Counted from the first letter of the stretch, positions 5,154 through 55,613 are shown. The stretch is DNA of 59,086 nt from a virus (IMGVR_UViG_3300008108_000133:1-59086), one strand, 5' to 3'. Numbers and translations are program-made. Notes: generated by a model not told the origin, from the sequence alone.

Positions 5154-8100
5154 GTGGCACTTAAGAAACCATCAGATTTATTTAATTCGCAAGATATCTC
5201 TGGAGTATTTGAAACGCCAGAAGTTTCTTCAGACATTGTAGAAAGTTACGATAAATTTCGTATTAACTTTGATAGAGTTAACGAACTTTCTGAAAAAGTA
5301 GAAACATTATCTCAACAACTTTCTGAAAAACTGAGCAGAACTGAACTTGAGAATGCAATGCTTTCTCAGTTAATGATTCTTGATGAAAATTTTAAGTCCT
5401 TTCAAAATCAGATTAATGGAATTAATAAAGAAGATTTAAGAGAATTTAAAAGCACTGTTTTTAATCTTGCGGAACTTGTTGGGAATATTGTAGAAAATGA
5501 GATCCCAAAATATAAAAAGCAAGTTACTAAGAGTGAACTCTATGTTAGCGAGAAAGTTAATCAAATTCAAGAAGTAATAGAAGAAAATATAATCAATATT
5601 CGTGAAGAGATTGATACTAAATTTGGTAATATTGCCGAAGTTGTTGACCATAACATTGAATGTCTTAATCAACAAATTCAAGAAAACTCGTCTAAAATTA
5701 AAGAGACTACAAAAGTTTATAATAATCTTTCTCAAGTTTTAGAAAATAAAATTTTAAAGGAAAATCAAAAATTTGAAGAATATTCGAATTTAATTAAAAA
5801 TCTTTCTTATGCATTTGATGAACTTTCTGAAATTTTTAAAGAAGAACTTTCTGTATCATCGCATCTGAATGAAGAGAAGTTCAAAGAGTATCAAAAAGAA
5901 ATTGAAAGTAGACATATTGAAATCCAAACTTCTATTGATACTCGTTTAGAAGACTATCGGAAAGATCTTGTTGATATAAAAACAGATGTTGCTATCAATG
6001 AACAGCATATCAAGAATGTAGATAACTATCTGCAAGAAAATCATAAAGAAATTGTTCAACTTAAAGAAGAAGTTTTTTCTCAGATTGAAAAATTACCTGT
6101 TGGAAATTTACAAGAGAATCTTGAAAGATTAGAAAAGAAAATTGATTACATCAAAGAAACATATTCTAAGATTGAATCTGAAGACTTAGTAAAAGAAGTT
6201 ATTTCTGAAGGTCTTTTAAACGAACCCCCAGAAACAAAGAATTCAGATTCTCTTACACCACTCAATCAAAACTTTGTAACTCTAGAACAACTTCAAGAGC
6301 ATTATCGTCTATTCATCAATCGTATTCAGCAACAGCTTGCTACCATTGGTGGTGGTGGTGAAACACAACTTAAGTATCTTGATGATGTTGTTGGTATTGC
6401 TACCGATCCAAGTTCTTATGATGGGAAGTTTCTTAAGTATGACCATTCTCTAGGTAAGTTTGTATTTGAAACTGTTTCTGGTGGTGGGGGTGGTATTCAA
6501 GGAATTCAAGGAATTCAAGGTACTGATGGTTCTAATGGCACTCAAGGTACTCAAGGTACTCAAGGTACTGATGGTGCTACTGGTACTCAAGGTATTGCTG
6601 GATCTCAAGGTACTCAAGGTATTCAAGGTTCTCAAGGAATTACGGGTTCTGGTACTCAAGGAACCACAGGATCTCAAGGCATTCAAGGTACTCAAGGTAC
6701 TGAAGGTACTCAAGGAACCACAGGATCTCAAGGCATTCAAGGTACTCAAGGTACTGAAGGTACTCAAGGAACTGTAGGTACTCAAGGCACTGAAGGTACT
6801 CAAGGAACCACAGGATCTCAAGGTATTCAAGGCACTGAAGGTACTCAAGGAACCACAGGATCTCAAGGTATTCAAGGTACTGATGGAACTTCAGGTACTC
6901 AAGGAACCACAGGATCTCAAGGTATTCAAGGTATTCAAGGTACTGAAGGTGCTCAAGGAACCCAAGGAACTCAAGGAACCACAGGTACTCAAGGTACTCA
7001 AGGTACTGAAGGTGCTCAAGGAACCCAAGGAACCACAGGTACTCAAGGTACTCAAGGTACTCAAGGTACTGAAGGTGCTCAAGGAACCCAAGGAACCACG
7101 GGTACTCAAGGTACTGAAGGTACTCAAGGAACCACAGGTACTCAAGGCACTCAAGGCACTCAAGGTACTGAAGGTGCTCAAGGAACCCAAGGAACCACAG
7201 GTATTCAAGGTACTACTGGAACACAAGGTATTCAGGGTATTCAGGGTGCTACATCGAGTGCCTTGGGATATTATGGAAGTTTTTATGACACTACCAATCA
7301 AGTTAGTGCCGGAACAACTGCAAGAAATCTAGTTGCGATTGGTCAAACTGCAGAATCATATGCGGTCAATATTGTAGACGGGACAAAAATTAAAGTAGAT
7401 AACTCTGGTGTTTATAATGTCCAATTTAGTTTTCAATTAGAGAAAACAAATGCATCTACTGATACAGTTGATATTTGGATTGCTAAAAATGGAAGTGATG
7501 TTCCATATACTGATAGTCAAATTACAATTCAAGGTGCTGGAGAAACAGAGATTCCTGCTTGGAACTTTGTATTGTCATTAAATGCGGGAGATTATATTGA
7601 ATTTTATTGGTCTTCCAGTGATGCGGATATGCAGTTGTCTACACTTCCAGCAGGAAGTAATCCAACTCGACCTGTTAGCCCTTCAGTTATTGTAACTATT
7701 GCGGAAGTAGCAAGTGCATTATCTGGAGCTTCTGGAGGAGGAACACAAGGAATTCAAGGAATCCAAGGTACTGGAGGAACTCAAGGAATTCAAGGAGCAT
7801 CGGGTATTCAAGGTACTCAAGGAATATCGGGTACTGAAGGTGCAGCAGGTACTCAAGGTACTCAAGGTACTCAAGGTACTCAAGGTACTGAAGGTGCTCA
7901 AGGAACCCAAGGAACGACAGGTATTCAAGGTACTCAAGGTACTGAAGGTGCTCAAGGAATCCAAGGAACTCAAGGAACCACAGGTACTCAAGGCACTCAA
8001 GGTACTGAAGGTGCTCAAGGAACCCAAGGAACCACAGGTACTCAAGGAATATCAGGTACTGAAGGTGCAGCAGGTACTCAAGGAACCACAGGTGCTCAAG

Positions 8101-8765
8101 GTACTGAAGGTACTCAAGGAATATCAGGTACACAAGGAATTCAAGGTACTCAAGGAACCACAGGTACTCAAGGAATATCAGGTACTCAAGGAACCACAGG
8201 TGCTCAAGGTATAACAGGTGCTCAAGGAACCACAGGTGCTCAAGGTACTCAAGGTACTCAAGGAATTCAGGGAAGTGATGGTGTAGGCACTCAAGGAATT
8301 CAAGGAATTAGTGGAGTAACTGTTTTAGGTTCAAATAATAACTATAGCGGAATCACAACTTTTAGTGGAAATGTATTTACAACTGCAGGATTGCAGGTAC
8401 AACAAGTAGAAGAAACATATAATACCTATAGTACTTCAATAGCATCTGCAGCAGTTGTTTCTCTTGATTGTTCAACTGGAAATACTTTCTACGTTACTTC
8501 AACAGTTAGTGGAAACTGGACTGCAAATCTTACCAACTTGAATTTAAGTGCAAATTGTTTGACTAATGTGACTTTGATGATTACACAAGGTACAACTGCT
8601 TATGTTCCAAATGCACTTCAAATTGGTGGTGTTTCACAAACAATCAATTGGCAAGGGGGATCAATCCCAACTGGAAATAATTCCAAGAAAGATGCAATTG
8701 CATTCACAATCTTCTATACAGGAAGTGTATATAATATCTTCGGACAACTTGTAACATTCGGATAA
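5154..8765 (+). CDS. large virion fibre protein: coiled coil + two collagen-like (G-X-Y) blocks + C1q/BclA-like domain
   Basis: ~400-aa coiled coil, GTQ/GIQ/GTE triplets, YGSFYDTT...AWNFVLSLNAGDYIE domain between the blocks. Confidence 0.8.
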   Translation: MALKKPSDLFNSQDISGVFETPEVSSDIVESYDKFRINFDRVNELSEKVETLSQQLSEKLSRTELENAMLSQLMILDENFKSFQNQINGINKEDLREFKSTVFNLAELVGNIVENEIPKYKKQVTKSELYVSEKVNQIQEVIEENIINIREEIDTKFGNIAEVVDHNIECLNQQIQENSSKIKETTKVYNNLSQVLENKILKENQKFEEYSNLIKNLSYAFDELSEIFKEELSVSSHLNEEKFKEYQKEIESRHIEIQTSIDTRLEDYRKDLVDIKTDVAINEQHIKNVDNYLQENHKEIVQLKEEVFSQIEKLPVGNLQENLERLEKKIDYIKETYSKIESEDLVKEVISEGLLNEPPETKNSDSLTPLNQNFVTLEQLQEHYRLFINRIQQQLATIGGGGETQLKYLDDVVGIATDPSSYDGKFLKYDHSLGKFVFETVSGGGGGIQGIQGIQGTDGSNGTQGTQGTQGTDGATGTQGIAGSQGTQGIQGSQGITGSGTQGTTGSQGIQGTQGTEGTQGTTGSQGIQGTQGTEGTQGTVGTQGTEGTQGTTGSQGIQGTEGTQGTTGSQGIQGTDGTSGTQGTTGSQGIQGIQGTEGAQGTQGTQGTTGTQGTQGTEGAQGTQGTTGTQGTQGTQGTEGAQGTQGTTGTQGTEGTQGTTGTQGTQGTQGTEGAQGTQGTTGIQGTTGTQGIQGIQGATSSALGYYGSFYDTTNQVSAGTTARNLVAIGQTAESYAVNIVDGTKIKVDNSGVYNVQFSFQLEKTNASTDTVDIWIAKNGSDVPYTDSQITIQGAGETEIPAWNFVLSLNAGDYIEFYWSSSDADMQLSTLPAGSNPTRPVSPSVIVTIAEVASALSGASGGGTQGIQGIQGTGGTQGIQGASGIQGTQGISGTEGAAGTQGTQGTQGTQGTEGAQGTQGTTGIQGTQGTEGAQGIQGTQGTTGTQGTQGTEGAQGTQGTTGTQGISGTEGAAGTQGTTGAQGTEGTQGISGTQGIQGTQGTTGTQGISGTQGTTGAQGITGAQGTTGAQGTQGTQGIQGSDGVGTQGIQGISGVTVLGSNNNYSGITTFSGNVFTTAGLQVQQVEETYNTYSTSIASAAVVSLDCSTGNTFYVTSTVSGNWTANLTNLNLSANCLTNVTLMITQGTTAYVPNALQIGGVSQTINWQGGSIPTGNNSKKDAIAFTIFYTGSVYNIFGQLVTFG
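6492..7250 (+). repeat. collagen-like 9-nt tandem repeat block 1 (ggtactcaa variants)
   Basis: Direct reading. Confidence 0.9.
7740..8312 (+). repeat. collagen-like 9-nt tandem repeat block 2
   Basis: Direct reading. Confidence 0.9.
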
Positions 8766-8769
8766 TCTT

Positions 8770-9564
8770 ATGTTTGGTCTAGCATCGCAAAGTTATAGAG
8801 TAGGTCAAAGACCTGGTGTTATAGTTGTAGATCCCAATACTCTACCAAACCTTCAAGTTTGGTATAATGCAGATTTGGGAACTTCTGCTTCTGGAAACTT
8901 TAATGTAAACTTGACAAGTGGTGACGATGTTTCTCAGTGGAAAGACCGTTCTGCATTTGGAAACAACCTTAATAAATCAGGTAATAACTCAGTCAAACCA
9001 AATTGGATAGCAAACCAAGCAGGTGTTGGAAATACTTTTGGTGTTATCCGTTTCAATGGAACTTCTGAAAGTTTAGATATTAATCCTATTCCTTGGTTAC
9101 AAAGTTTGGGTGGATTTTCATTATTTGTTGTAGCAAGAGCATCAACCGTTGGAGTATCGGCTAGAACTATTTGTACAACAAATACAGGAGGTTTTCAGAT
9201 TACACACAATGGAACTAATTGGAGAGTTGAGGCAGGAAATTGTAGTGGAGTTTCCACAGTTACTGGTGTTGGAGATACTTCTAGGTTTAACATTTATAGT
9301 TTGATTTTTGATGGGATTGGTGTGGGAAATACTGCAAGACTTAAATTTAGATATAACAAAATTCCTCAAACATTAACATATACTGGTATTGCAAATAGTA
9401 TTACTAGTGCATCTGCATCTACTTTTTATGTTGGGGTAGGTACTCTGGGTAATTCTGGATTTTTTAGTGGTGATATTGCGGAAATTATTATGTTTACAAG
9501 AGCTATCAACTCTTCTGAAATTGGGGGTGTGGAATCTTATATGACTGCACACTGGAACCTCTGA
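8770..9564 (+). CDS. LamG/concanavalin A-like virion protein
   Basis: LQVWYNAD...VSQWKDRS, FSGDIAEIIMF...VESYMTAHW pattern. Confidence 0.7.
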   Translation: MFGLASQSYRVGQRPGVIVVDPNTLPNLQVWYNADLGTSASGNFNVNLTSGDDVSQWKDRSAFGNNLNKSGNNSVKPNWIANQAGVGNTFGVIRFNGTSESLDINPIPWLQSLGGFSLFVVARASTVGVSARTICTTNTGGFQITHNGTNWRVEAGNCSGVSTVTGVGDTSRFNIYSLIFDGIGVGNTARLKFRYNKIPQTLTYTGIANSITSASASTFYVGVGTLGNSGFFSGDIAEIIMFTRAINSSEIGGVESYMTAHWNL

Positions 9565-9569
9565 ACCAC

Positions 9570-9598
9570 TTGACAGGTAAGTGATTTTAGGTTAAAAT
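9570..9598 (+). promoter_or_regulatory. sigma70-type early promoter
   Basis: TTGACA-N17-TAAAAT. Confidence 0.75.
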
Positions 9599-9636
9599 CT
9601 TGGGGGTTACTCCCGAAATTAACTTCGTTTTATATT

Positions 9637-11445
9637 ATGCTATTTTCCAAATCTTATAGGAAATTTGATAGTAAAAAGTTTTTTGGAAAATTTAATTTTA
9701 AATCAACCAAACAACGATCAAAAACTAGTACGTCTTCTTTTAGTTATGCTGATGCCCCTAGTGTATCGGGTGAAGTAATACCTTGGGGTGTCCGCGCAGT
9801 CTGGCAAGGAGAAGACATTGCTAAACGAGGAAACTTTGCAAGCGATACTTATGCGTTTGTGATTGACTCTGGCGTATCAGATCAAACGGGAGATCTTAAC
9901 TTTGCTCCAGCAGAGTGGAGTAAGAGTTGGATTTCTGGGCAATCACCATTTACGGATGCTAATGGTCACGGAACTCATATTGCTGGAACCATTGGTGCTC
10001 TTGTTAATGGAAGGGGAATTGTCGGCGTTGCACCTGGAGCGCAGATTATTTCTCTAAAAGTCAACAATGATGCTGGTTTTGGTGATGGTTCAACAACTGC
10101 AAAGGCAGTTGACTATGCGATTGATGTTATTAATAAAAACAATCTGGATAAAAGCAAGGTCGTTATTAATCTTAGTATCAATGCGACCTTTGACCCATTG
10201 CTAAATTCGTCTGTTATTAATGGCGCTAATCAAGGTATTAAATTCGCAATTTCTGCTGGAAATAATGGAAAAGATGTAGATGGATTTTCTCCTGTGTCAA
10301 CTGGATATCATCCAAATGTCTTTACTGTTTCTGCAGTAGATAGCAGCAACAGAATGCCTTTTTGGTCTAATTGGGATCGTATTGATTCTAATGATAGTGT
10401 TGATGATGTTGATTTTTCTGCTCCTGGAGTTGGAATCCTTTCATATTATAAGAATAATCAACTCTCTGAGTTGAGCGGAACATCAATGGCAACTGCACAT
10501 ATTTCAGGTTTATTGATTACTGGTGGAGTTCAAGCGGGTAATTATGTAACTCCAAATTATTCGGATACATCAGATCCCTTTGCAATCACGAGTACACAGG
10601 TATTTAACCCTTCGGCAATAATTACATCTGGACCTTATCCGACACCTGCCCCTCCAGTATCCACATTTAAATTATCAGCACCCTCTAGCGTCAAAGAAGG
10701 TGAGACCCTGAAGGTCGATATTGCAACTACTAATCTTCGGGTTGGTTCTGACATGTATTGGCAAATTTCTGGAAATGGGATTGAGATGAATGATTTTTAT
10801 TCTATCAATAATCTCTGGGGTAATGCAATTGTTGCTGATAATGGAACATCTTCAATCAACTTTAATATTAAAAAAGATGGCATTACAGAAGGAAATGAAG
10901 TGATTAAATTTGAATTATTTGATAGTTCTCATCCAAGTACTAGAAAAAAAGTCACAGAATCACTTATTACTATTGAAGACACATCTAAGACTCCACCACC
11001 GATTCAATATCAATGGGGAACCACTGGTAATGATGTGATTAATGGTGGCGAATTTCGGGACACGATCACGGGTTCTTTGTCTTCTGGAACATCGCTGTCC
11101 GCAATGGGTTCTGGTCAAATTGATGTATTGATAGGAGGTTCTGATACTGATGTATTTGTTCTTGGTGACAGTCGTGGTATATTTTATAATGATGGAGTAA
11201 GTAATTCCTTAGGAAGATTTGATTATGCTCTCATCAAAGACTTTAAAGTTGGAGAGGACAAAATCCAAGTAAAATCTGGATTAGGCGGATATCTTTCTGA
11301 GGTTGTTAATGGAAATCTTTCGTTGTATTGGGATGTCAACAGGACGGGAAGGATAGAGACTAGTGGTTTCAGATCTGATGAATTGATTGCTGTATTTGAA
11401 GGAGTTACTGCTTTAAGTAATAGTGAGTACATTGCAGTGAGGTGA
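9637..11445 (+). CDS. subtilisin-family (S8) serine protease with Calx-beta-like and RTX-like C-terminal regions
   Basis: Catalytic triad motifs VIDSG, HGTHIAG, SGTSMA; GTTGNDVINGG and GGSDTDVFVLGD repeats. Confidence 0.9.
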   Translation: MLFSKSYRKFDSKKFFGKFNFKSTKQRSKTSTSSFSYADAPSVSGEVIPWGVRAVWQGEDIAKRGNFASDTYAFVIDSGVSDQTGDLNFAPAEWSKSWISGQSPFTDANGHGTHIAGTIGALVNGRGIVGVAPGAQIISLKVNNDAGFGDGSTTAKAVDYAIDVINKNNLDKSKVVINLSINATFDPLLNSSVINGANQGIKFAISAGNNGKDVDGFSPVSTGYHPNVFTVSAVDSSNRMPFWSNWDRIDSNDSVDDVDFSAPGVGILSYYKNNQLSELSGTSMATAHISGLLITGGVQAGNYVTPNYSDTSDPFAITSTQVFNPSAIITSGPYPTPAPPVSTFKLSAPSSVKEGETLKVDIATTNLRVGSDMYWQISGNGIEMNDFYSINNLWGNAIVADNGTSSINFNIKKDGITEGNEVIKFELFDSSHPSTRKKVTESLITIEDTSKTPPPIQYQWGTTGNDVINGGEFRDTITGSLSSGTSLSAMGSGQIDVLIGGSDTDVFVLGDSRGIFYNDGVSNSLGRFDYALIKDFKVGEDKIQVKSGLGGYLSEVVNGNLSLYWDVNRTGRIETSGFRSDELIAVFEGVTALSNSEYIAVR

Positions 11446-12834: not shown

Positions 12835-13305
12835 ATGTTAAATAATCAAACTATGAAAACCTGCAACGTATGCGGTGAAACCAAACCGCTTTCAGAGTAT
12901 TATCCAACTCAATTCAAGAGTAAAGAGTTTCCTGATAAAATCTATTATCACGGGAAATGTAAGTCTTGTTTCATTAAAGCAAAACAAAAAGATTATACTC
13001 CAGAAAAAGGTAGAGATAAAAATCTACGATATAATTATGGTATTACACTTGAAGAATATAATATTCTTTTAAGTAATCAGGAAGGTAAATGTGCTACTTG
13101 CGGAACTACTGAGCCAGGAGGTAGAAAATCTGGAAGGGGTGGTGGAACTAATGTATTTGTTGTAGATCATTGCCACGATACTGGTAAAGTTAGAGGTCTT
13201 CTTTGCCATAGTTGTAACAGGGCTATGGGACTATTAGGAGATAATGTAAACATTATTGAAAGTATGATTAAATACCTTGAGCAGTACGAAACCAATGTCT
13301 CATAA
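12835..13305 (+). CDS. free-standing homing endonuclease, endonuclease VII family (F-CphI-like)
   Basis: CxxC zinc motifs, VDHCHDTGKVRGLLCHSCNRAMG; directly downstream of psbA with own promoter (TTGACT 12798, TATAAT 12822). Confidence 0.85.
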   Translation: MLNNQTMKTCNVCGETKPLSEYYPTQFKSKEFPDKIYYHGKCKSCFIKAKQKDYTPEKGRDKNLRYNYGITLEEYNILLSNQEGKCATCGTTEPGGRKSGRGGGTNVFVVDHCHDTGKVRGLLCHSCNRAMGLLGDNVNIIESMIKYLEQYETNVS

Positions 13306-13449: not shown

Positions 13450-13503
13450 ACATCTAATAATATCTGCATTACATCTACATTACATCTACATAACATCTGC
13501 ATC
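13450..13503. repeat. imperfect 11-nt tandem repeat (acatctacatt), 4-5 copies
   Basis: acatctaata atatctgcatt acatctacatt acatctacata acatctgcatc. Confidence 0.7.
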
Positions 13504-13619
13504 ATATTTGATATACCCTATAATGGGTACTTGATCTTATAAAGTATAATGCTATAATTACCCAGAAGAACAGGGGAAGATCCCCCAGTCTTCTCTTGTA
13601 CTTTAAATCTTAAAAATTT

Positions 13620-14021
13620 ATGAAACCTCTTTCATATTATCAAAAGACTTCAGTTTCAGTTCCGACGAAAGACAAGTATATGACCACCTACTATTACCGA
13701 AGGGGAGTAATGGTAGGAATGAAAGTCGGTCCTCATGATGAAAACTTTGAACCACCAAAGAATTGTGTGGAAGAAAAAGTATTAGACGAAGTTTCATATC
13801 AAGCACACTTGAAGCATTATCATGAAGAGATAAAAAAACTACAGGATGAATTTAAATATGATTTAATGAAAAAATATAATGTTCTGGGACATCCCAAAGC
13901 AGATGAGTGTTTCTATAAGGCATGGGATTTTGGAGAAAGTTCTGGACTATATGATGTTGAAGATTATTTTAGGAACCTCATAGAATTAGTAAAAGACCAA
14001 TCAGTAAATTGTGTACATTGA
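13620..14021 (+). CDS. hypothetical protein
   Basis: ORF track; upstream TTGATC...TATAAT and hairpin. Confidence 0.7.
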   Translation: MKPLSYYQKTSVSVPTKDKYMTTYYYRRGVMVGMKVGPHDENFEPPKNCVEEKVLDEVSYQAHLKHYHEEIKKLQDEFKYDLMKKYNVLGHPKADECFYKAWDFGESSGLYDVEDYFRNLIELVKDQSVNCVH

Positions 14022-14025
14022 TATT

Positions 14026-14313
14026 ATGTCATTAACTATTGAACAAATTGAAGAACAAATTTCCAATCTTCAAAAGACTTTAGATGAATTGAAAAATCCC
14101 AAATTGCAAGTCATTCGACAATTCACTGGACAATACTTTGCTCCTTATCAGGGAAGGCAGTATCGTCGTATGGAGTCCGAAGGTATTCCAATCTGGGAAT
14201 GTTATTTGGATATTAAAAAGGAATGGGTTCTTGTTGAGACAAGAGAAAACAAACAACTCGAAAAAATTTATCTCAATGATTGCGTTCCTGAAATAGAGGA
14301 AACTGAAGATTAA
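14026..14313 (+). CDS. hypothetical protein
   Basis: ORF track (likely start MSLTIEQ). Confidence 0.65.
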   Translation: MSLTIEQIEEQISNLQKTLDELKNPKLQVIRQFTGQYFAPYQGRQYRRMESEGIPIWECYLDIKKEWVLVETRENKQLEKIYLNDCVPEIEETED

Positions 14314-14342
14314 AAAAGAAAGAGTGGTAAAACCACTCTTTT
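14312..14342. terminator. bidirectional terminator between convergent units
   Basis: aaagagtgg-taaaa-ccactcttt with A and T flanks. Confidence 0.75.
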
Positions 14343-14346
14343 GACA

Positions 14347-14583
14347 TTAAGTTGCTGGTGGTTCAGGAACTGGTTCGGGAACTGGAACTGGTTCAGGTAC
14401 TGGAACTGGTTCAGGTACTGGAACTGGTTCAGGTACTGGAACTGGTTCAGGTACTGGGGGCTCTACAAATTCTTGATAGCACAAACATATGTCCCCATTT
14501 TTATCAATAAAATATGGTCGATATACTCTGTACATAACATTTGGCATGTACATGATTCTTGGTCTTGGTCTTAAATACTTCAT
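14347..14583 (-). CDS. Pro-rich protein with (PVPEPV)n tail
   Basis: ORF track; four exact 18-nt units actggaactggttcaggt at 14381-14452; GGGGGG RBS. Confidence 0.65.
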   Translation of the reverse strand: MKYLRPRPRIMYMPNVMYRVYRPYFIDKNGDICLCYQEFVEPPVPEPVPVPEPVPVPEPVPVPEPVPVPEPVPEPPAT

Positions 14584-14687
14584 TGAAACCCCCCTGATGA
14601 TTTACATCCGATTGTAATTGAATTTTTAACTCAAAAACCTATAGAATAAATCTACGGTGTTAATATATGAATTTGTGTCCTCCTTTC

Positions 14688-15110
14688 TTATTTGGGTTCC
14701 TCCACAGGAACATATTTGTGTTGAATTTTATAACCTAATTCACTTGGAGTCCACCATCCAGATGCAAGAGTAGATATTGAAGTTGCTAAAATTGCCGATG
14801 CTATACCAACACCAACAATCATCCATTTAATTCTAGAAACATCTTCAATTTTTTTTTCTACTAAACTCACTTTTTTATTGACAGAATTACGTACTTCATC
14901 AATCATTTTAATGATTAATTCATTAGCTTGTGAATTTTGATCTAATCTGTTTTCATGTCTTTCAAGGATAATGGCAACAGTATGATTACTTTCAGAAATC
15001 TTATCTACGGCTTTTTCCAATTTATTCAACATCTGTTTAGATAGATCTTCATAAATTTGAAATCTAGATTCAAGGACCGCAAGTTCTTTGTTGCTTATGC
15101 CAAATCCCAT
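14688..15110 (-). CDS. coiled-coil protein with C-terminal TM helix (XhlA-like architecture)
   Basis: Heptad-rich N-terminus, KWMIVGVGIASAILAT. Confidence 0.7.
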   Translation of the reverse strand: MGFGISNKELAVLESRFQIYEDLSKQMLNKLEKAVDKISESNHTVAIILERHENRLDQNSQANELIIKMIDEVRNSVNKKVSLVEKKIEDVSRIKWMIVGVGIASAILATSISTLASGWWTPSELGYKIQHKYVPVEEPK

Positions 15111-15127
15111 AGTGGATAAACTCCGTA

Positions 15128-15397
15128 TTAAATTGGAATATCGGTAGGGGGTTCAGCAGGTGCTGTGCAGATTCCTACTGATTCTGGTTCTGGTGTCATT
15201 GACTGATAAATGTCAGAATTCTGAATCACATCAGTCATAGTTCCATAGTTATCAATTCTTTGATCGACATTTGCAATCTGACTATCAATGATATTTTGTT
15301 GATAGTTATAAAATGGATTATAATATCTTCCATAATAATATGGATCAATGTTGTAATATCTTTTATAATATGGATATGGTTGATATCTGTAGTACAT
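15128..15397 (-). CDS. Tyr-rich N-terminal, acidic C-terminal protein (89 aa)
   Basis: MYYRYQPYPYYKRYYNIDPYYYGRYYNPFYNY; AGGAG RBS before ATG 15397. Confidence 0.7.
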   Translation of the reverse strand: MYYRYQPYPYYKRYYNIDPYYYGRYYNPFYNYQQNIIDSQIANVDQRIDNYGTMTDVIQNSDIYQSMTPEPESVGICTAPAEPPTDIPI

Positions 15398-15411
15398 TTT
15401 AAATCTCCTAC

Positions 15412-15552
15412 TTAGTAAGGATAGTATGGATAATGTGAATAATAAGGGCAATATCTATCATAGTAAGGATAGCACCCATAACGATAGTAGTCATAATAGT
15501 CATAGTATCTTCTATGGTAGTAGGAATAATTGTAAGGTCTCGGATAATACAT
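15412..15552 (-). CDS. 46-aa peptide, 23 of 46 residues Tyr (below the ORF-track cutoff)
   Basis: Hand-translated MYYPRPYNYSYYHRRYYDYYDYYRYGCYPYYDRYCPYYSHYPYYPY; AGGAG RBS 7 nt upstream; stop abuts next RBS. Confidence 0.75.
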   Translation of the reverse strand: MYYPRPYNYSYYHRRYYDYYDYYRYGCYPYYDRYCPYYSHYPYYPY

Positions 15553-16297
15553 TTGAGTCTCCTGTTTGGTTGGTTATCTCAAAAGTCCAAATGTCGTATC
15601 CCTCCTGTCTGATGTAATCAAAAGGAATCCAACAGTATCCGTTGTCTCCCCAACTCGTTCCAAAACTATTCTTTGCTAAGAATAATCTTTTTCCTAAATC
15701 ATAACCAACCATACACATTGCGTGCCCACCAAGACTTTTTTCCTTTCTGGAAGGAAGATATACAGTAGAAATACTTTCATTTAGATCCATAAAACTATCA
15801 TAAATTTCCATTCCAAATACAACAGGTTTGTTGTTATTCAGCACTTCAGTAATGTAATAAGTGCTAATAAGTTTTTGATACTTAAGAACCTTTCTTTTCT
15901 TGGCATCTTCATAGCATTCATCTGTTGGTTTATCATCAAACTTTTCTACGTCATAAGGCCATAGATCTTCAGAACAAACTCCAAACTTGGATAATGATTT
16001 CAGACCATCTCTTAAATAAATTCCATTATCTTCTGAAATACTTTCATACTCAGCGCGAGTGTTATAATAAATGAATAATCTACTGAGATGTATGAAGTAT
16101 TCTGGATAATTTTGCCTTACCTTCATTTCATATGCATTTGTTAACGCATTAGAACTGCAACTACCCAATGTTCCTTGTGATTCCACAATCGTATCCCACT
16201 CACGAAGATCTACAAATTCTCGTAGAACTGCGCTATTATCTGATTGATAGATGTAATCTCTTACATCGGGTAGAGATGGTTTGATATTAAAGTTCAT
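15512..16297 (-). CDS. papain-like cysteine peptidase (C1A)
   Basis: VDLREW, QGTLGSC (catalytic Cys), GGHAMCMVGYD (His), KNSFGTSWGDNGY (Asn). Confidence 0.92.
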   Translation of the reverse strand: MNFNIKPSLPDVRDYIYQSDNSAVLREFVDLREWDTIVESQGTLGSCSSNALTNAYEMKVRQNYPEYFIHLSRLFIYYNTRAEYESISEDNGIYLRDGLKSLSKFGVCSEDLWPYDVEKFDDKPTDECYEDAKKRKVLKYQKLISTYYITEVLNNNKPVVFGMEIYDSFMDLNESISTVYLPSRKEKSLGGHAMCMVGYDLGKRLFLAKNSFGTSWGDNGYCWIPFDYIRQEGYDIWTFEITNQTGDSNVLSETLQLFLLP

Positions 16298-16306
16298 TGT
16301 TCTAAA

Positions 16307-16918
16307 TTAGATAATTCTCCATTGTCCGCCACGAAATACTATAGATACTGACTGATTAGGTACTGATATAATATAATTGTTTGCATTATCAATTTTTTCA
16401 AGTCCTGATGGTTGAATAGTGATCTTTCCAGAACCTTGTCCATATTCATCTTTGATTGTATAAACTCTTCCAGTCACACCAGTAGGTAATGTAATCGTGA
16501 CTGCAGAAGCACTAAAAACTCCAATATATTCATCGTTAGCAGTTGCTGTATAAGAACCAGTAACTCCTATAGTTGCAATTAAATCTGCACCAGAAGCAGA
16601 AATAGTAATATAACCAGTAGAGTTACTAACACTAATACCAGCTCCAGCAACAATTGAAAGAACTCCTGTGTTTGAAACTGCAAATCCAACTGTATTACCA
16701 GTTGAAACTAAGTTTGTAATCGAAACACCAAGTCCAGCAACTGGATTAACAGAAGTGACAACCGCACTTTCTCCGACGCTAACTTGATTAAATGATACCG
16801 AAGCATTTGGTGAAACATCTTGTGCTATAGAAATAAATCCATCGAGCACATTAATGAAACTACCAATTCCAACCACTCCATAATCTGTTTTTGATGTAGG
16901 TTGGGCTAAGTATGCCAT
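16307..16918 (-). CDS. fibre-like protein with shared C-terminal beta domain
   Basis: AGAGISVSNSTG repeats; C-terminal YTATANDEYIGV...RGGQWRII. Confidence 0.7.
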   Translation of the reverse strand: MAYLAQPTSKTDYGVVGIGSFINVLDGFISIAQDVSPNASVSFNQVSVGESAVVTSVNPVAGLGVSITNLVSTGNTVGFAVSNTGVLSIVAGAGISVSNSTGYITISASGADLIATIGVTGSYTATANDEYIGVFSASAVTITLPTGVTGRVYTIKDEYGQGSGKITIQPSGLEKIDNANNYIISVPNQSVSIVFRGGQWRII

Positions 16919-16929
16919 TGTTTACTCCG

Positions 16930-17499
16930 TTAGATGATGTGCCAATCTCCACCGCGACAGAATATGTTTACCGATTGGTAAGGTACTTCCATAACGTATT
17001 TGTCGGCACCATCAATATAACTACCGTCAGTGGTAGTAACGGTGACCTTACGATTTCCTAATGGTGGACCCATCTCTGCTTTCACGATGATTTCACAGCA
17101 GTCGATGCAGTTCTCAGGTAATGAAATAGTAACAGGTTCGTCACTGTTGACACCGATATAGTAATCATCGCAAGTAGCAGTATAATCAGATGAAACCAGG
17201 ACGCTTTTGCACTTACAGGTACACACTCCCGGTTCCCCTTGAGGTCCTGGTGGTCCTTGCGGTCCTGGTGGTCCTTGCGGTCCTGGTGGTCCCGGAGGAC
17301 CCGGAGGGCATTCATCGGGACAATCATCGCCGTCTATAACTACATTGATATTGTTAGTGCCACCGTCACGAGTATTCAGTATCTCTGTTATTTCGGCACG
17401 AATCGACTGAATGTTTCCAAGAACATTTGGATCGTTATTTCTTTGATATTGTGCAAGAAGATTATAAAGATCAATAAGTCTTCTTTCTGCTGAGTCCAT
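16930..17499 (-). CDS. Cys-rich collagen-like protein with the same C-terminal domain
   Basis: GPPGPQ run flanked by CPDEC and CTCKC; [12 protein letters not shown]...RGGDWHII. Confidence 0.75.
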
Positions 17500-17512
17500 A
17501 GTTAGTCTCCTT

Positions 17513-17540
17513 AAAAAAAGAGGGGGAGTTATATCCCCCT
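17513..17540 (-). terminator. terminator/attenuator after the first island gene
   Basis: Minus strand AGGGGGA-UAUAAC-UCCCCCU-CUUUUUUU. Confidence 0.75.
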
Positions 17541-17561
17541 TTAGATAACTACTGAACTAAA

Positions 17562-18389
17562 TCAGCGAACAGCGTTGCTGGTGGAGGACTGACCTACACC
17601 TGCCATGGTTCCAAAGTTAACCATACCCTGACGGGTCTCAGCAATCTGACTATTCAGAGCGTTGAGTTGTGAATTAACTTGTGAGGACAGGGCAGCAAAC
17701 TGGTTGTTGAACAGACCATCTCTGACGCCCCAGTAATCTGAACGGCAACCTTGAAGGTCTGTGTTACGCTCAATCAGAAGACGATTGAGTTCATCATTCT
17801 TGAGAGAATTGATGAGGTCTCTAGTCTTCTCATTTTCGTAAGCAATTTGCTTGCTGGTGTCATACTTGCTCTCAGCAATTTCTCTGCTGAGTTGATGCTG
17901 ACCAAGTGCTACAGCAGTAGCAACTTTTTCTGTTGCAAGGGCATTAGCAGCAGCGGTCTTCTCAGTGGCAAGAAGAATTTCAGAAGATAACTTCTGAGAT
18001 GACATATCTGTGAAAGCTTTCAGAGCAGCAAGGTCACGGGAATTATCAAAGTCTCTTGCTTGAGAAGCAATATAGAAGTCAGCAGCACGTTGCTGAATCT
18101 TGTCAGCAGCTTCATCAATTTTAACTTGGTTGTTATGACCAGTGACTAAAACATCACGGTTGGTGTCTTCTGAAGAAGCAGCAATAGCATACTTGACATC
18201 ACCGAAACCTAATGCTTGCTCTCTACGAATGTCAGAATCGCCAGTGAGAACTGCTTGACGAACATCTGATGCACGAGTAGCAACATCGTAACGGATTTCT
18301 CCACGCTCTACAGAACCTTCTCTACGAATGTCTGAGTGCTGTGCTGCAAGTGCTGCCCAAGGATCGGGCATATATACTTGATCTGCCAT
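17562..18389 (-). CDS. Ala-rich helical protein, probably highly expressed (275 aa)
   Basis: AAGGAG RBS, GCT/CGT/AAC-rich codons, internal SDIRRE repeats, ENEKTRDLI motif. Confidence 0.8.
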   Translation of the reverse strand: MADQVYMPDPWAALAAQHSDIRREGSVERGEIRYDVATRASDVRQAVLTGDSDIRREQALGFGDVKYAIAASSEDTNRDVLVTGHNNQVKIDEAADKIQQRAADFYIASQARDFDNSRDLAALKAFTDMSSQKLSSEILLATEKTAAANALATEKVATAVALGQHQLSREIAESKYDTSKQIAYENEKTRDLINSLKNDELNRLLIERNTDLQGCRSDYWGVRDGLFNNQFAALSSQVNSQLNALNSQIAETRQGMVNFGTMAGVGQSSTSNAVR

Positions 18390-18429
18390 TTTTTTGTTTC
18401 TCCTTAAAGGAAAGAAAGGTTAGTTTGTA

Positions 18430-18630
18430 GAGCAATACAATCCAGATCTTCCCTGACATAATGCCAGAAGAGTCGAGTCCACAGAAGACTGTAGAAGAGT
18501 CCTCTGGGATTATTACACTTCAGAATTGGATTGTATTACCCAATTAGAGGTGAGGCATTAATAAAGGAACCATTGCTGGAATCTTTTAGTAATACATCGG
18601 GTCTCTAATGAAGAGGATTGCTCCTCTTAT
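18430..18630 (-). ncRNA. putative structured leader RNA/ncRNA (three hairpin domains, two GCAA tetraloops)
   Basis: Stems 18611-17/18622-28, 18543-49/18603-09, 18434-44/18527-37, 18458-68/18503-13; extensions pair only as G-U on the minus strand. Confidence 0.65.
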
Positions 18631-18633
18631 CAA

Positions 18634-18640
18634 TATTTAG
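18634..18640 (-). promoter_or_regulatory. T4-type late promoter motif for the island
   Basis: CTAAATA on the minus strand 5 nt before the first hairpin. Confidence 0.55.
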
Positions 18641-18645
18641 TAAAT

Positions 18646-18999
18646 TTATTTTGTCTTAAGATGAACACTTTTTCGTTCTTCTTGCCACTTCAAGAAACCT
18701 GCCATAGTATTTGGATACTTTGGTTTTCTTCTACCTCTTGGTTTCTTTTGATGTTTCATAGCGATTTCATAATTACTCCAAGTTAATTCAAGTTCTTCTG
18801 GTCCGTTATCGAAGTGATAGAATCCATCTGTCCAAAAGTCAAACGAAGATTTATTTTGTATATGATCGCACCACAATTTAAATGATGCAAATACAAATAA
18901 CCATCCAAGTCTGAGTTTTGAAAAGAAGTCTTTGAGTGTGATCATTTTTACTCCTTTAAACTCATCATTATATAGTCTGGGGTAAGTAAAAATTTTCAT
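18646..18999 (-). CDS. hypothetical protein with basic C-terminus
   Basis: ORF track; likely start MITLKD with AAGGAG RBS. Confidence 0.55.
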   Translation of the reverse strand: MKIFTYPRLYNDEFKGVKMITLKDFFSKLRLGWLFVFASFKLWCDHIQNKSSFDFWTDGFYHFDNGPEELELTWSNYEIAMKHQKKPRGRRKPKYPNTMAGFLKWQEERKSVHLKTK

Positions 19000-19027
19000 T
19001 GACTTCTTTTATAAAGTATTGTAAACT
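18999..19027 (+). promoter_or_regulatory. psbD sigma70 promoter with overlapping HLR1-like direct repeat
   Basis: TTGACT-N17-TAAACT; minus strand TTTACAAT-AC-TTTATAAA at 19008-19025. Confidence 0.55.
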
Positions 19028-19053
19028 AAATATGAGAAATAACTAAGGAGGTT

Positions 19054-19914
19054 ATGACTTCTTCAACACTTTCACAACCTATTCAACAACGAGGATGGTT
19101 TGATGTCCTGGATGACTGGCTTAAACGAGATCGCTTTGTATTTGTGGGTTGGTCTGGATTACTACTTTTTCCCACTGCTTATCTTGCCCTTGGTGGCTGG
19201 CTTACTGGCACAACGTTTGTTATAGGGTTTATGCTTCGTCAGTTTGAGATTGCAAGACTTGTAGGCATCCGTCCTTATAACGCTATTGCTTTCTCTGGTC
19301 CTATTGCTGTATTCGTTTCTGTGTTCCTGATGTATCCACTGGGTCAGTCCAGTTGGTTCTTCGCACCTTCCTTTGGTGTTGCAGCGATTTTTAGGTTCCT
19401 CTTATTCCTTCAAGGTTTTCATAACTGGACGCTCAACCCCTTTCATATGATGGGAGTTGCTGGTATACTAGGTGGAGCATTACTCTGTGCAATTCACGGA
19501 GCAACAGTTGAAAATACATTATTTGAAGACAGTGACCAAGCAAACACTTTCAAAGCATTTGAACCGACTCAAGAGGAAGAGACGTATTCTATGGTCACGG
19601 CGAATCGTTTCTGGTCTCAGATTTTTGGTATCGCTTTTAGCAACAAGAGGTGGCTTCATTTCTTTATGCTCTTTGTTCCCGTCATGGGACTCTGGACAAG
19701 TTCCATTGGAATCATTGGTTTGGGTTTGAACTTGAGAGCTTATGATTTTGTAAGTCAGGAGATTCGTGCTGCTGAAGACCCGGAATTTGAAACCTTTGTA
19801 ACAAAGAACATATTATTGAATGAGGGAATTCGTGCTTGGATGGCTCCAGTAGACCAACCACATATGAATCTGGTGCTACCCGAAGAGGTATTACCACGCG
19901 GGAACGCCTTGTGA
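19054..19914 (+). CDS. psbD: photosystem II D2 protein with in-frame internal deletion (~67 aa); may be non-functional or an assembly artefact
   Basis: D2 N- and C-termini intact ([16 protein letters not shown]...LPRGNAL) but GTTFV joined directly to IGFMLRQ; 286 aa. Confidence 0.95.
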
Positions 19915-21331: not shown

Positions 21332-21538
21332 GACTTATATTATGATTGGATAAATAATAAAAAGTCATCTATTGGTGTGATTGTACAAGACGTTGAAAAA
21401 GTTCTTCCAGAACTGGTATCTGATACTGATCCAAAGACTGTTAATTATGATGGATTGATTGCAGTATTAATTGAAGCAATTAAAGAACAACAAGTTCGTA
21501 TCGAAGAGTTGGAGAATAATAAAATATTAAATGAATAA
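21332..21538 (+). pseudogene. orphan C-terminal fragment of a peptidase S74 tail-fibre chaperone domain
   Basis: YYDWINNKKSSIGVIVQDVEKVLPELV...[20 protein letters not shown] after an in-frame TAA; matches the C-termini of 44422 and 47491. Confidence 0.75.
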
Positions 21539-22076
21539 ATTGGAGGATTTAATATTTGTTGGAAATAATATCGATGTAATTGATTCTCTGAAAAGTTACA
21601 TCAAAAATTCCAATCTAAAATTTAAATCTGATGATGTGACTACAAAACAAAAATTTACAAAAAATCAGAGAGCATGTGATATTGCTTGGATACCTTGTAA
21701 AAAAAGCAATATTGTAAATGAAGTTCTGACTGATCTTTTAAATTCTGCTAATAATCTTAAATGGAAGTTAAATCTTTCTGAATGGCAATGTAATATACAG
21801 TATACATATTATTATCATTACAATCACCATTATGATTGGCACACTGATGTTTTAGATAATTCTAATCCAGATTTAAAAAGACTGATTACCATAGTTTATT
21901 GTTTAACTCCCAAAATTAATTACAAAGGTTGTAAGTTAGAAATCAAATATAATGATGAAATTTTTTCAAAAAAATTAGATATTGGTGATTATGTTGTTTT
22001 TCCTTCAGATTTAACTCATAGAGCAACTAAACTCATAACTGGAGAAAGAGAAGTATTAGTAGGTTGGTATAAATAA
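21531..22076 (+). CDS. 2OG-Fe(II) oxygenase (prolyl-hydroxylase-like)
   Basis: YDWHTD (HxD), FPSDLTHR, REVLVGW. Confidence 0.85.
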   Translation: MNKLEDLIFVGNNIDVIDSLKSYIKNSNLKFKSDDVTTKQKFTKNQRACDIAWIPCKKSNIVNEVLTDLLNSANNLKWKLNLSEWQCNIQYTYYYHYNHHYDWHTDVLDNSNPDLKRLITIVYCLTPKINYKGCKLEIKYNDEIFSKKLDIGDYVVFPSDLTHRATKLITGEREVLVGWYK

Positions 22077-22096
22077 TTTTTAATTGGTTTCCTTCA

Positions 22097-22795
22097 ATGG
22101 ATAAAAAAATCACAATATTGGGTGATCCATTTCCACATCTAATTGCTGAAAACTTTTATGATGAGGAAGAGTTAAAACTAATTTGGGAAGTACTTGATTC
22201 AATAACAGAAGAGCAAAAGTTTTTACCTCCCGGAAATGTTCATGGAGCATCTGCATATAAAGATGATAGATTAGTTTTTCTCACAAATCATAAAGCAATA
22301 CGATTAAACGACTTTTATGATGAGAAACCTTATTCAAATATTTTCAAATTATTTAAAAAAAAGTTTGATCCTCAGTTTTTCAATTCTTTTGTGAACAGAT
22401 TTCCTCAATTTTTAAGTTTATCAGATTTAGAAAATGCTCACTGCCTAGTAAAAGCAAGATACTATGCAGATGGAGAATATTACAAACCACATACTGATTA
22501 TAGAAGTAGTTACGCAATATTTACTTATTTCAATAAACAACCGAAAAAATATACAGGAGGAGAATTATATTTCCCTCAATATGGAAACTATCATTTTAAA
22601 TGCGAACACAATACTCTGATTCTTACTCCAGCATATGTGAAGCATTCAGTTAAAAAAGTGAATATTGGGAAAGAAGATTATAGTAATAATTTTGGTAGGT
22701 ATGCCATTACATATTTTATTGGTATGACTCCTTCACCAATGTATCCAGAACTTTCGAATAAATGGAAAATAAAAGAATGGGATTCTGAAGAATGA
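22097..22795 (+). CDS. 2OG-Fe(II) oxygenase
   Basis: YKPHTD, GGELYF, KHSV, GRYAIT. Confidence 0.85.
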   Translation: MDKKITILGDPFPHLIAENFYDEEELKLIWEVLDSITEEQKFLPPGNVHGASAYKDDRLVFLTNHKAIRLNDFYDEKPYSNIFKLFKKKFDPQFFNSFVNRFPQFLSLSDLENAHCLVKARYYADGEYYKPHTDYRSSYAIFTYFNKQPKKYTGGELYFPQYGNYHFKCEHNTLILTPAYVKHSVKKVNIGKEDYSNNFGRYAITYFIGMTPSPMYPELSNKWKIKEWDSEE

Positions 22796-55494: not shown

Positions 55495-55583
55495 CGTTCA
55501 TCTGGAATACCAGACGGAAGTAAGCCGACGCGGAACGGATTCGTTCATCCCATATGGGACGCAAACGCCGACTGAAGGAACGC
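55495..55583 (+). ncRNA. tandem glutamine riboswitch (glnA / Downstream-peptide class), two aptamers
   Basis: Two units CGTTCATC-hairpin-GACG...GCCGAC..GGAACG (55495-55537, 55542-55582) upstream of a YRG peptide. Confidence 0.8.
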
Positions 55584-55613
55584 TCTTTAGCCTCAAAATT
55601 AAGGAGAACCCTA

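Follow-up and report, generated by a model that had tools for sequence, protein, structure and literature searches.

What is made by the eight open reading frames (ORFs) that lie on the minus strand between psbA and psbD in a 59-kb virus record of IMG/VR (IMGVR_UViG_3300008108_000133; 59,086 nucleotides [nt]; completeness rating of 24%)? This record, analyzed over its whole length and referred to here as the window, comes from a T4-like cyanophage, as judged by a psbA gene behind a PhotoRC-II RNA, a psbD gene, and many plus-strand genes that follow ATAAATA-type motifs. The unit in question (positions 14347 to 18640; all of its features are on the minus strand) had been read in an initial annotation as a self-contained late operon whose products cross-link into a protein coat, an inclusion, or an adhesive matrix. 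The eight ORFs, the leader RNA, both terminators, and the CTAAATA motif listed there were all recovered in place. For the product, we tentatively prefer a different reading, in which the cassette is possibly a late-switched accessory fiber system of T4-superfamily phages that adds extra fibers to the particle. This reading is preferred because the fold that can be placed is of the phage-appendage type, the unit has a late promoter motif, the collagen helix is clamped by cystines, and the cassette is confined to lytic T4-type phages.

The genes of the unit occur together well beyond the window. A back-translated pattern search with the 275-amino-acid (aa) protein of the first gene, here called the rod (17562 to 18389), yielded 47 related loci from IMG/VR. 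When these viral loci were searched with the window proteins by tblastn, the rod gene was followed on the same strand by the gene of a collagen-like short fiber protein (189 aa; 16930 to 17499) in 44 of 47, and the three loci without it were cut or short. Thus, the co-occurrence proposed as a check of the operon was borne out. A papain-family (C1) peptidase gene lay 3′ of the rod gene in 28/47 loci and a Tyr-rich protein gene in 19/47, with the gene order constant. For family counts, ORFs were clustered from 30 nonredundant loci plus the window (31 loci). The fiber/collagen family was present in all 31 clustered loci (55 copies) and the rod family in 30, followed by the C1 peptidase family (n = 19), the Tyr-rich protein family (n = 17), a LuxR/GerE-type regulator family located directly upstream of the rod gene (n = 14), a further family of ~160 aa (n = 7), and a transmembrane (TM) coiled-coil family (n = 5).

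The 24 closest loci belong to cyanomyoviruses like the phage of the window. The distant carriers are T4-superfamily jumbo phages, with only 33 to 40% identity; outside the cassette, they have no protein in common with the window at an E value of <1e-6. In the 84- to 400-kb records of these distant carriers, a gp23-type capsid gene was found in three of five and psbA in none of five. Because the order is kept across phages with nothing else in common, the cassette is, on sequence evidence, a coherent module moving among T4-superfamily phages. Its location between psbA and psbD holds here and in locus L006, but in L001, L007, and L019 the cassette lies elsewhere relative to these genes. No relatives were found in 185,579 prokaryote species genomes (one genome per species), and a nucleotide search of positions 14000 to 19100 against 50,697 phage records matched only the psbD edge (5 records, 2% coverage). 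The window DNA was found in lake metagenomes from 11 studies, which suggests that the cassette is common in freshwater T4-like phages. PADLOC assigned the cassette proteins to no defense family, with weak coiled-coil-type matches at an E value of >0.002 for two neighbors only. A search of the literature in full text, supplementary gene tables excepted, found the cassette nowhere described.

The fold that can be placed is that of the fiber proteins. The collagen-like protein begins with an N-terminal helix and closes with an end domain of ~90 residues; between these, nine consecutive G-X-Y triplets (mostly GPP and GPQ) are flanked by one Cys cluster on either side. Relatives carry longer triplet runs, and the Pfam Collagen model (PF01391) scored 26 bits, just below its cutoff of 27.2. 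The Cys positions that flank the triple helix are nearly invariant, including Cys64 and Cys97. The last ~90 residues recur as the C-terminal knob of the next gene product, a fiber/spike paralogue of 203 aa with a beta-rich N-terminal part (16307 to 16918). AlphaFold2 modeled the end domain of this paralogue with a predicted local distance difference test (pLDDT) score of 93 to 96, and the predicted knob is a nine-stranded beta-sandwich that can be superposed on the middle domain of T4 gp9 and on the XD1 domain of TSP4; the model thus points to an XD1 fold. The matches comprised CBA120 TSP4 residues 79 to 175 (fold-match score of 12.1; root mean square deviation of 1.8 Å over 89 residues), a tailspike C terminus (11.7), Klebsiella phage baseplate chains (11.1 to 11.2), the Pa223 capsid-spike knob (10.9), T4 gp9 (10.0), and T4 gp10 (9.6). 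A comparison with BFVD retrieved at least 367 viral matches at an E value of ≤0.001, among them Gp9/Gp10, tail fiber, minor tail, and collagen repeat proteins as well as one protein from the T4-like jumbo phage Atu_ph07. At the sequence level, neither Pfam nor PDB connected the knob to an XD1-type family, the sole hint being Phage_depo_C at an E value of 0.09, and the PDB sequence profile search with the fiber paralogue returned nothing below an E value of 0.12.

The rod is predicted by AlphaFold2 (33-row alignment) to be one continuous helix over residues 9 to 261, with a mean pLDDT of 81 and a disordered end; such a helix would be ~37 nm long. Residues 18 to 105 form eight 11-residue repeats, and the lengths of 66 of the 120 best homologues are multiples of 11. 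The family has 939 members at an E value of ≤1e-3 in public metagenomes, all hypothetical or unlabeled. The rod has no relative in Pfam, annotated PHROGs, PDB, or cultured phages, and PDB profiles gave nothing below an E value of 0.12. The search of BFVD with the rod model gave a best E value of 1.3, which is uninformative for a single helix, and the ESM Atlas returned unnamed viral clusters only.

Even among rods with only 33% overall identity, the last 25 residues hardly vary, and a C-terminal tag of ~30 residues is common to the rod and to the Tyr-rich protein of the cassette (89 aa; 15128 to 15397), in which it precedes an acidic, Pro-rich tail. A hidden Markov model (HMM) of the last 45 rod residues matched 16 of 17 Tyr-rich proteins (E values of 4e-8 to 1.5e-4), missing only that of L005. 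None of 340 shuffled copies fell below an E value of 2.4, and no other gene cluster fell below 0.05; by these comparisons, the shared tag is statistically real. A 40-position tag profile run against 1.84 billion representatives produced 161 matches, plus one spurious match to a 7883-aa protein of repetitive sequence. Of the 161, 14 were examined; each of these belongs to the rod or Tyr-rich family, and the remaining lengths and match positions fit the same two. The tag occupies the very end of helical rods or rod fragments (78 to 446 aa) and lies near the end of Tyr-rich proteins (60 to 104 aa). The libraries searched contain no described family to which the rod family, the tagged Tyr-rich family, or the tag could be assigned. 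A main role of the tag as a cleavage site for the peptidase seems less likely, as a complete 400-kb carrier keeps the tag without the peptidase. A complex prediction with three copies of the collagen-like protein and three copies of the last 75 rod residues scored 0.00 and speaks neither for nor against docking.

Signals for late and unequal expression frame these genes. The T4-late-type promoter motif CTAAATA (18634 to 18640) starts the unit, 5 nt past the stop of the upstream gene. In the alignment with close relatives, its TAAATA hexamer is invariant in 12/12 and stands at the 5′ edge of the leader. The octamer at this position is TATAAATA in nine of the relatives, which is the T4 late-promoter consensus; two others have the heptamer CTAAATA, and one has CATAAATA. 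With CTAAATA in the window and TATAAATA in 9/12 relatives, the upstream motif marks the unit as a probable T4-type late unit. The proposal of a late motif is upheld by placement and by the T4-late-type sequences of relatives but not by abundance, as CTAAATA occurs 10 times in the window versus 13.9 expected. All 10 copies are sense oriented and just upstream of ORFs, so likely late promoters appear to be marked by the position of the motif rather than by its number. No further ATAAATA or CTAAATA was found on the minus strand within the unit. We note that the plus strand of the window holds 19/21 ATAAATA and 8/10 CTAAATA sites, mostly 20 to 40 nt before plus-strand ORF starts, neither motif being more frequent than chance predicts.

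Between the motif and the rod gene lies a leader of ~240 to 245 nt (18390 to 18633), which an alignment of close relatives shows to be better conserved than the coding sequence behind it. RNAalifold analysis of nine leaders gave a consensus fold of 70 pairs, 13 of them with compensatory changes, in agreement with the structured leader RNA proposed earlier. The rod ORF follows an AAGGAG ribosome-binding site, and in the last predicted leader hairpin UUUCC is paired with the Shine-Dalgarno sequence GGAGA. The leader may thus sequester the ribosome-binding site, possibly as a new cis-regulatory RNA; it was unmatched in Rfam at an E value of ≤1. A terminator scan of positions 13500 to 19500 found 19 terminator-like sites (3.6 expected), the best two being an intrinsic-terminator-like hairpin with a T-run just 3′ of the rod gene (17512 to 17540; called by the scan at 17521 to 17540) and a hairpin with a 10-pair stem and a T-run that closes the unit between convergent genes (14319 to 14341). 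The latter had been described as bidirectional; this could not be upheld, as the hairpin was called on the minus strand only. A direct search for a hairpin plus T-run found one within 110 nt of the rod stop in 22/30 loci, which suggests that a design of much rod and less of the rest is conserved. The idea of one abundant product with minor read-through products fits this arrangement.

The distant cassettes appear to be controlled in another way. A LuxR/GerE-type helix-turn-helix gene of 200 to 290 aa precedes the rod gene by about 100 to 900 nt in L028 to L044 (e.g., L031:6513-7256 and L036:7066-7830), and the seven members tested were confirmed as PF00196 (1e-15 to 1e-17). The jumbo-phage cassettes lack TATAAATA and have a recurrent TAAGTA-N4-5-ATGAGAG element plus a hairpin 60 to 75 nt before the rod start codon. 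The LuxR-type gene and the TAAGTA-type element would together provide a second way of controlling this cassette. In two lake metatranscriptome runs, contigs were found that are identical to stretches of the unit in the window (e.g., 18095 to 18704, 15753 to 16667, and 14428 to 15145); these contigs were assembled from libraries that may hold DNA, and they say nothing on timing, level, or the stretches that they do not cover.

Downstream of the fiber genes, the cassette encodes the C1 cysteine peptidase (261 aa; 15512 to 16297). Its match to PF00112 (56.8 bits versus a cutoff of 20.7; E value of 4.4e-15; residues 29 to 224) places it in the papain family, and the catalytic residues Gln41, Cys47, His192, and Asn210 are all present. 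Among 17 relatives, counted after fragments of 51 and 156 aa had been dropped, Gln and Cys are each kept in 15 and His and Asn in all 17. The propeptide and signal peptide typical of C1A zymogens are absent, with 28 residues preceding the mature-domain match. The closest solved chain is 3ois_A ("Cysteine protease"; E value of 6.5e-41; residues 5 to 239), which is presumably xylellain of Xylella fastidiosa. The two enzymes have the same catalytic set; unlike 3ois_A, the phage chain opens with the mature domain, and its partner genes are unique to the cassette. The initial annotation saw an intact, dedicated protease. Intact it is, by its papain catalytic set, but it is not obligatory: one carrier (399,796 bp; completeness rating of 100%) combines the rod and fiber genes and the tag with no peptidase match, whereas the search gave exactly one match in each of four positive-control records known to have the peptidase (4/4). 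Going by this carrier, the peptidase is dispensable to the cassette.

The remaining ORFs differ in their standing. A 46-aa peptide that is 50% Tyr and contains two Cys residues (15412 to 15552) overlaps the 3′ end of the peptidase gene by 41 nt; it is kept at the same place, including the two Cys, in L006, L007, L011, and L019 (45 to 53 aa; 45 to 51% Tyr). The Tyr-rich, acidic ORF that follows is present as annotated, but the start giving 107 aa should probably be replaced by the ATG at 15397, which gives 89 aa, as in relatives. The TM-anchored coiled coil (140 aa with a C-terminal TM segment; 14688 to 15110) also exists and belongs to DUF7201 (PF23831; 92.2 bits versus a cutoff of 27; E value of 3.2e-26). 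Its homologues were detected by tblastn in 287 cultured cyanophage records lacking the cassette, and that of S-PM2 (p148) adjoins the primase gene. Because so many records hold a homologue without the cassette, we regard this general cyanomyovirus gene as a 3′-end passenger rather than as a cassette part. Last, the (PVPEPV)n ORF (78 aa; 14347 to 14583) is present as an orphan of uncertain coding status, with no relative in any locus and a single weak match (6.9e-4) among 5.8 billion proteins. The strand opposite its repeat is also open. Without relatives, this ORF may or may not be a gene.

Several known systems resemble single parts of the cassette. The XD1 domain is described in T4 gp9, gp10, and TSP4 and, as a glycan-binding domain, in CpaA and StcE (PMC8825819). 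Compared with the XD1-type structures of T4 gp9/gp10 and the N-terminal part of CBA120 TSP4 (PDB entries 1qex, 5iv5, and 7rej/7rfo), the cassette domain is a C-terminal knob on proteins of 189 and 203 aa and not an internal baseplate-hub spacer. The cassette knob proteins also lack AD, XD2, and XD3, show no detectable sequence homology to these proteins, and are not encoded in a baseplate cluster. The capsid spike gp52 of Pseudomonas phage Pa223, with a proposed role in adsorption, is anchored by its N terminus, continues as a beta-helix, and ends in a C-terminal knob; the authors call the matching knob a TNF fold (bioRxiv 10.1101/2025.06.11.659172). This spike (PDB entry 9ny6) shows that a short spike ending in a knob can sit on a capsid. 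It differs from the cassette in that Pa223 is a podovirus with a single-gene spike that has no rod, collagen, protease, or Tyr-rich partner, and its identity to the cassette protein is 16%. Collagen-like tail fiber proteins with triple-helix segments plus coiled-coil and fiber domains are known from E. coli O157:H7 prophages (PMC3368898); as far as that source describes them, these are temperate tail fiber genes with different flanking domains and no shared cassette.

For the rod, the obvious comparison is fibritin (wac) of T4, a late, alpha-helical, nonessential collar whisker of 487 aa with a heptad coiled coil and a foldon end. Like fibritin, the rod is long, of late type by its motif, alpha-helical by prediction, and accessory. 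In contrast to fibritin, it has 275 aa, repeats of 11 rather than 7 residues, and a disordered conserved tag in place of the foldon, and it has no PDB or Pfam match; we do not assign it to the fibritin family. The Bacillus proteins BclA (collagen-like with an end knob) and CotC/CotU (small and Tyr-rich) have counterparts of the same general kind in the cassette. Unlike in Bacillus, these have no detected homology and no cross-linking enzyme, and they are confined to lytic T4-like phages, with no match among cellular genomes. BclA joins its collagen region to an exosporium-targeting N terminus and a C1q/TNF-like C-terminal domain. No sequence match to BclA was found, and neither BclA nor C1q chains were among the fold matches listed, although this listing does not speak against a resemblance of the knobs.

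How might these parts work together as an accessory fiber system? A single late promoter would drive the structured leader and then the rod gene, and a leaky terminator 3′ of the rod gene would lower the levels of the downstream products. The rod, with its predicted 11-residue repeats and helix of ~37 nm, would be the abundant component, forming a "hair" or shaft. Short trimeric fibers would be made by the collagen-like protein and its paralogue; they would attach through their N-terminal parts and carry at the far end a knob that may bind glycan and has the gp9/TSP4-XD1 fold, known from other proteins as a spacer or glycan-binding domain. After release of the particle from the cell, the trimer would be locked by the cystine clusters that flank the triple helix. 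The tag common to the rod and Tyr-rich proteins would act as a docking or assembly signal, and the papain-type peptidase would be an optional helper (in trimming, maturation, or cleavage of host proteins) rather than a core part. The outcome would be extra fibers on the head, neck, or tail that aid host adsorption.

A number of observations weigh against such fibers and keep our preference tentative. The cassette has control elements of its own (the leader here and a LuxR/GerE-type regulator in 14/31 loci), which constitutive virion parts do not usually have. Its position is outside the structural block, at a distance of 127 to 235 kb from gp23 where that gene was found (three records), and its neighbors in jumbo phages are restriction-modification genes and methylases, homing endonucleases, a porin, ATPases, and other accessory genes. 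The rod shows no clear heptad signal (heptad power of 0.07), and its hydrophobic periodicity peaks near 3.67 to 3.75 are weak (power below 1). The knob is 55 to 90% identical among fiber paralogues, unlike a fast-evolving receptor-binding tip. The PHROG "tail fiber" matches of the collagen-like protein span only the G-X-Y stretch and are thus low-complexity matches. Tyr/Arg/Pro-rich mini-proteins and a cytoplasmic papain-type peptidase are unusual as fiber accessories. Finally, the rod and the fiber paralogue were unmatched in 50,697 cultured phage records. The control elements also allow a broader picture that we consider doubtful. The cassette would be a self-regulated kit for an optional surface layer, the tag would recruit the rod and Tyr-rich proteins to a putative structure based on fibers, and either a LuxR-type activator (jumbo phages) or a riboswitch-like leader (cyanophages) would set the switch, so that a single phage genotype could show an environmentally controlled virion dimorphism of particles with or without the layer.

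Could the products instead act outside the particle, as the initial annotation supposed? They would then form a cross-linked coat, inclusion, or adhesive matrix around the progeny or the lysing cell, held by di-tyrosine and disulfide links, with the protease maturing the assembly. The composition fits (a collagen-like protein with Cys clusters, the 50%-Tyr peptide, Tyr-rich proteins, and Pro-rich tails), as do one abundant product with read-through minors, a unit with its own regulator or leader, a location outside the structural block, and two nearby 2OG-Fe(II) oxygenase genes of a prolyl-hydroxylase-like Pfam family. However, searches of Pfam, PHROGs, and PDB revealed no homology to coat, exosporium, or occlusion proteins; the unit has no oxidase, peroxidase, or transglutaminase; its sole well-defined fold belongs to virion fibers and spikes; and the protease is missing from a complete carrier genome. 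The products also carry no secretion signals, and a matrix could therefore form only in the cytoplasm or after lysis. No result argues for a spore-coat-like product, be it a cross-linked coat, an inclusion, or a matrix, and we judge this explanation unlikely. The same absence of signal peptides would suit an assembly aid that stays inside the cell, with the rod and the tagged Tyr/Arg-rich proteins as a late cytoplasmic scaffold or condensate (e.g., organizing fiber or particle assembly) that does not enter the particle and with a peptidase that clears the scaffold or digests host proteins. Low-complexity Tyr/Arg-rich proteins and a long helix do have a common tag here, the control elements suggest conditional use, and a peptidase without a propeptide would be active in the cytoplasm. 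Yet an oxidizing, extracellular setting would best explain why cystine clusters are conserved around the collagen helix, the knob fold points to particle appendages, and no known scaffold family was matched, which together make a scaffold improbable.

Two further explanations treat part or all of the unit as incidental. The first is a host-envelope or lysis module, in which the C1 peptidase and the TM coiled coil would jointly target the cell wall or envelope, leaving the fibrous proteins as bystanders. In its favor, a weak PHROG match (8.5e-4) links the TM coiled coil to holins, and a C1-like domain of 28% identity forms the N terminus of a 753-aa auto-annotated "endolysin" of Alicyclobacillus phage MMB025. 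Against this, 287 cyanophage records have the TM coiled coil but no cassette, its gene in S-PM2 adjoins replication genes, the peptidase is missing from 12/31 clustered loci and one complete genome, and PF00112 enzymes are proteases rather than muramidases or cell-wall peptidases, the "endolysin" label being automatic. We therefore think a lysis module very unlikely. The genes might also have no common function and be unrelated accessory genes adjacent in a variable region, as a hot spot with homing endonucleases and a varying position relative to psbA and psbD could suggest. To this we give almost no credence: the same order is found across phages otherwise sharing nothing, one tag is common to two gene families and one knob to two others, and a single promoter motif serves the unit.

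The flanks of the cassette contain candidate members and other features. Two convergent genes on the plus strand (13620 to 14313; 133 and 100 aa; no family) accompany the cassette in 12/31 and 10/31 loci, respectively. Homologues of the 133-aa protein lie directly 3′ of the collagen-like gene on the same strand (L013:9554-9922 and L014:4490-4876), and this protein may be a module member. On the other side, the 117-aa ORF upstream of the unit (18646 to 18999, minus strand) more likely starts at an internal ATG behind AAGGAG, as in relatives. The resulting 99-aa protein (MITLK...) has one hydrophobic segment and a basic tail and precedes the cassette in 6/31 loci. An endonuclease VII-type gene (12835 to 13305, plus strand; PF02945, 2.7e-23) lies just 3′ of psbA with CTAAATA 27 nt before its start, and homologues are equally placed in L011 and L019.

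Elsewhere in the window, psbD (19054 to 19914, plus strand) encodes only 286 aa, and its tblastn match in L006, L007, and L019 splits in two with extra sequence between the parts. Contigs of two RNA-library runs leave the window sequence exactly at 19222 (junction 19221/19222). An in-frame internal deletion of psbD in the window record would fit both findings. Other genes of a matrix-like appearance are found on the plus strand at 5154 to 11445 and 21531 to 22795, among them those of a 1203-aa protein in which collagen repeats form six stretches (PF01391, 1.4e-61), a subtilase that matches an RTX-type repeat, and the two 2OG-Fe(II) oxygenases (PF13640). Weak oxygenase relatives lie near the cassette in L016, L040, L041, and L044. 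A glutamine riboswitch aptamer was also identified at 55540 to 55586 on the plus strand (RF01739; 36.5 bits versus a gathering score of 35).

If the cassette indeed supplies extra fibers, it is relevant to host finding by abundant lake cyanophages. Among the parts known for phage assembly and regulation, the shared tag and the two alternative control devices would be new. The rod family, with none of its 939 public-metagenome members named, provides one concrete target for virion metaproteomics and cryo-electron microscopy of environmental phages, and the tag and the knob provide two more.

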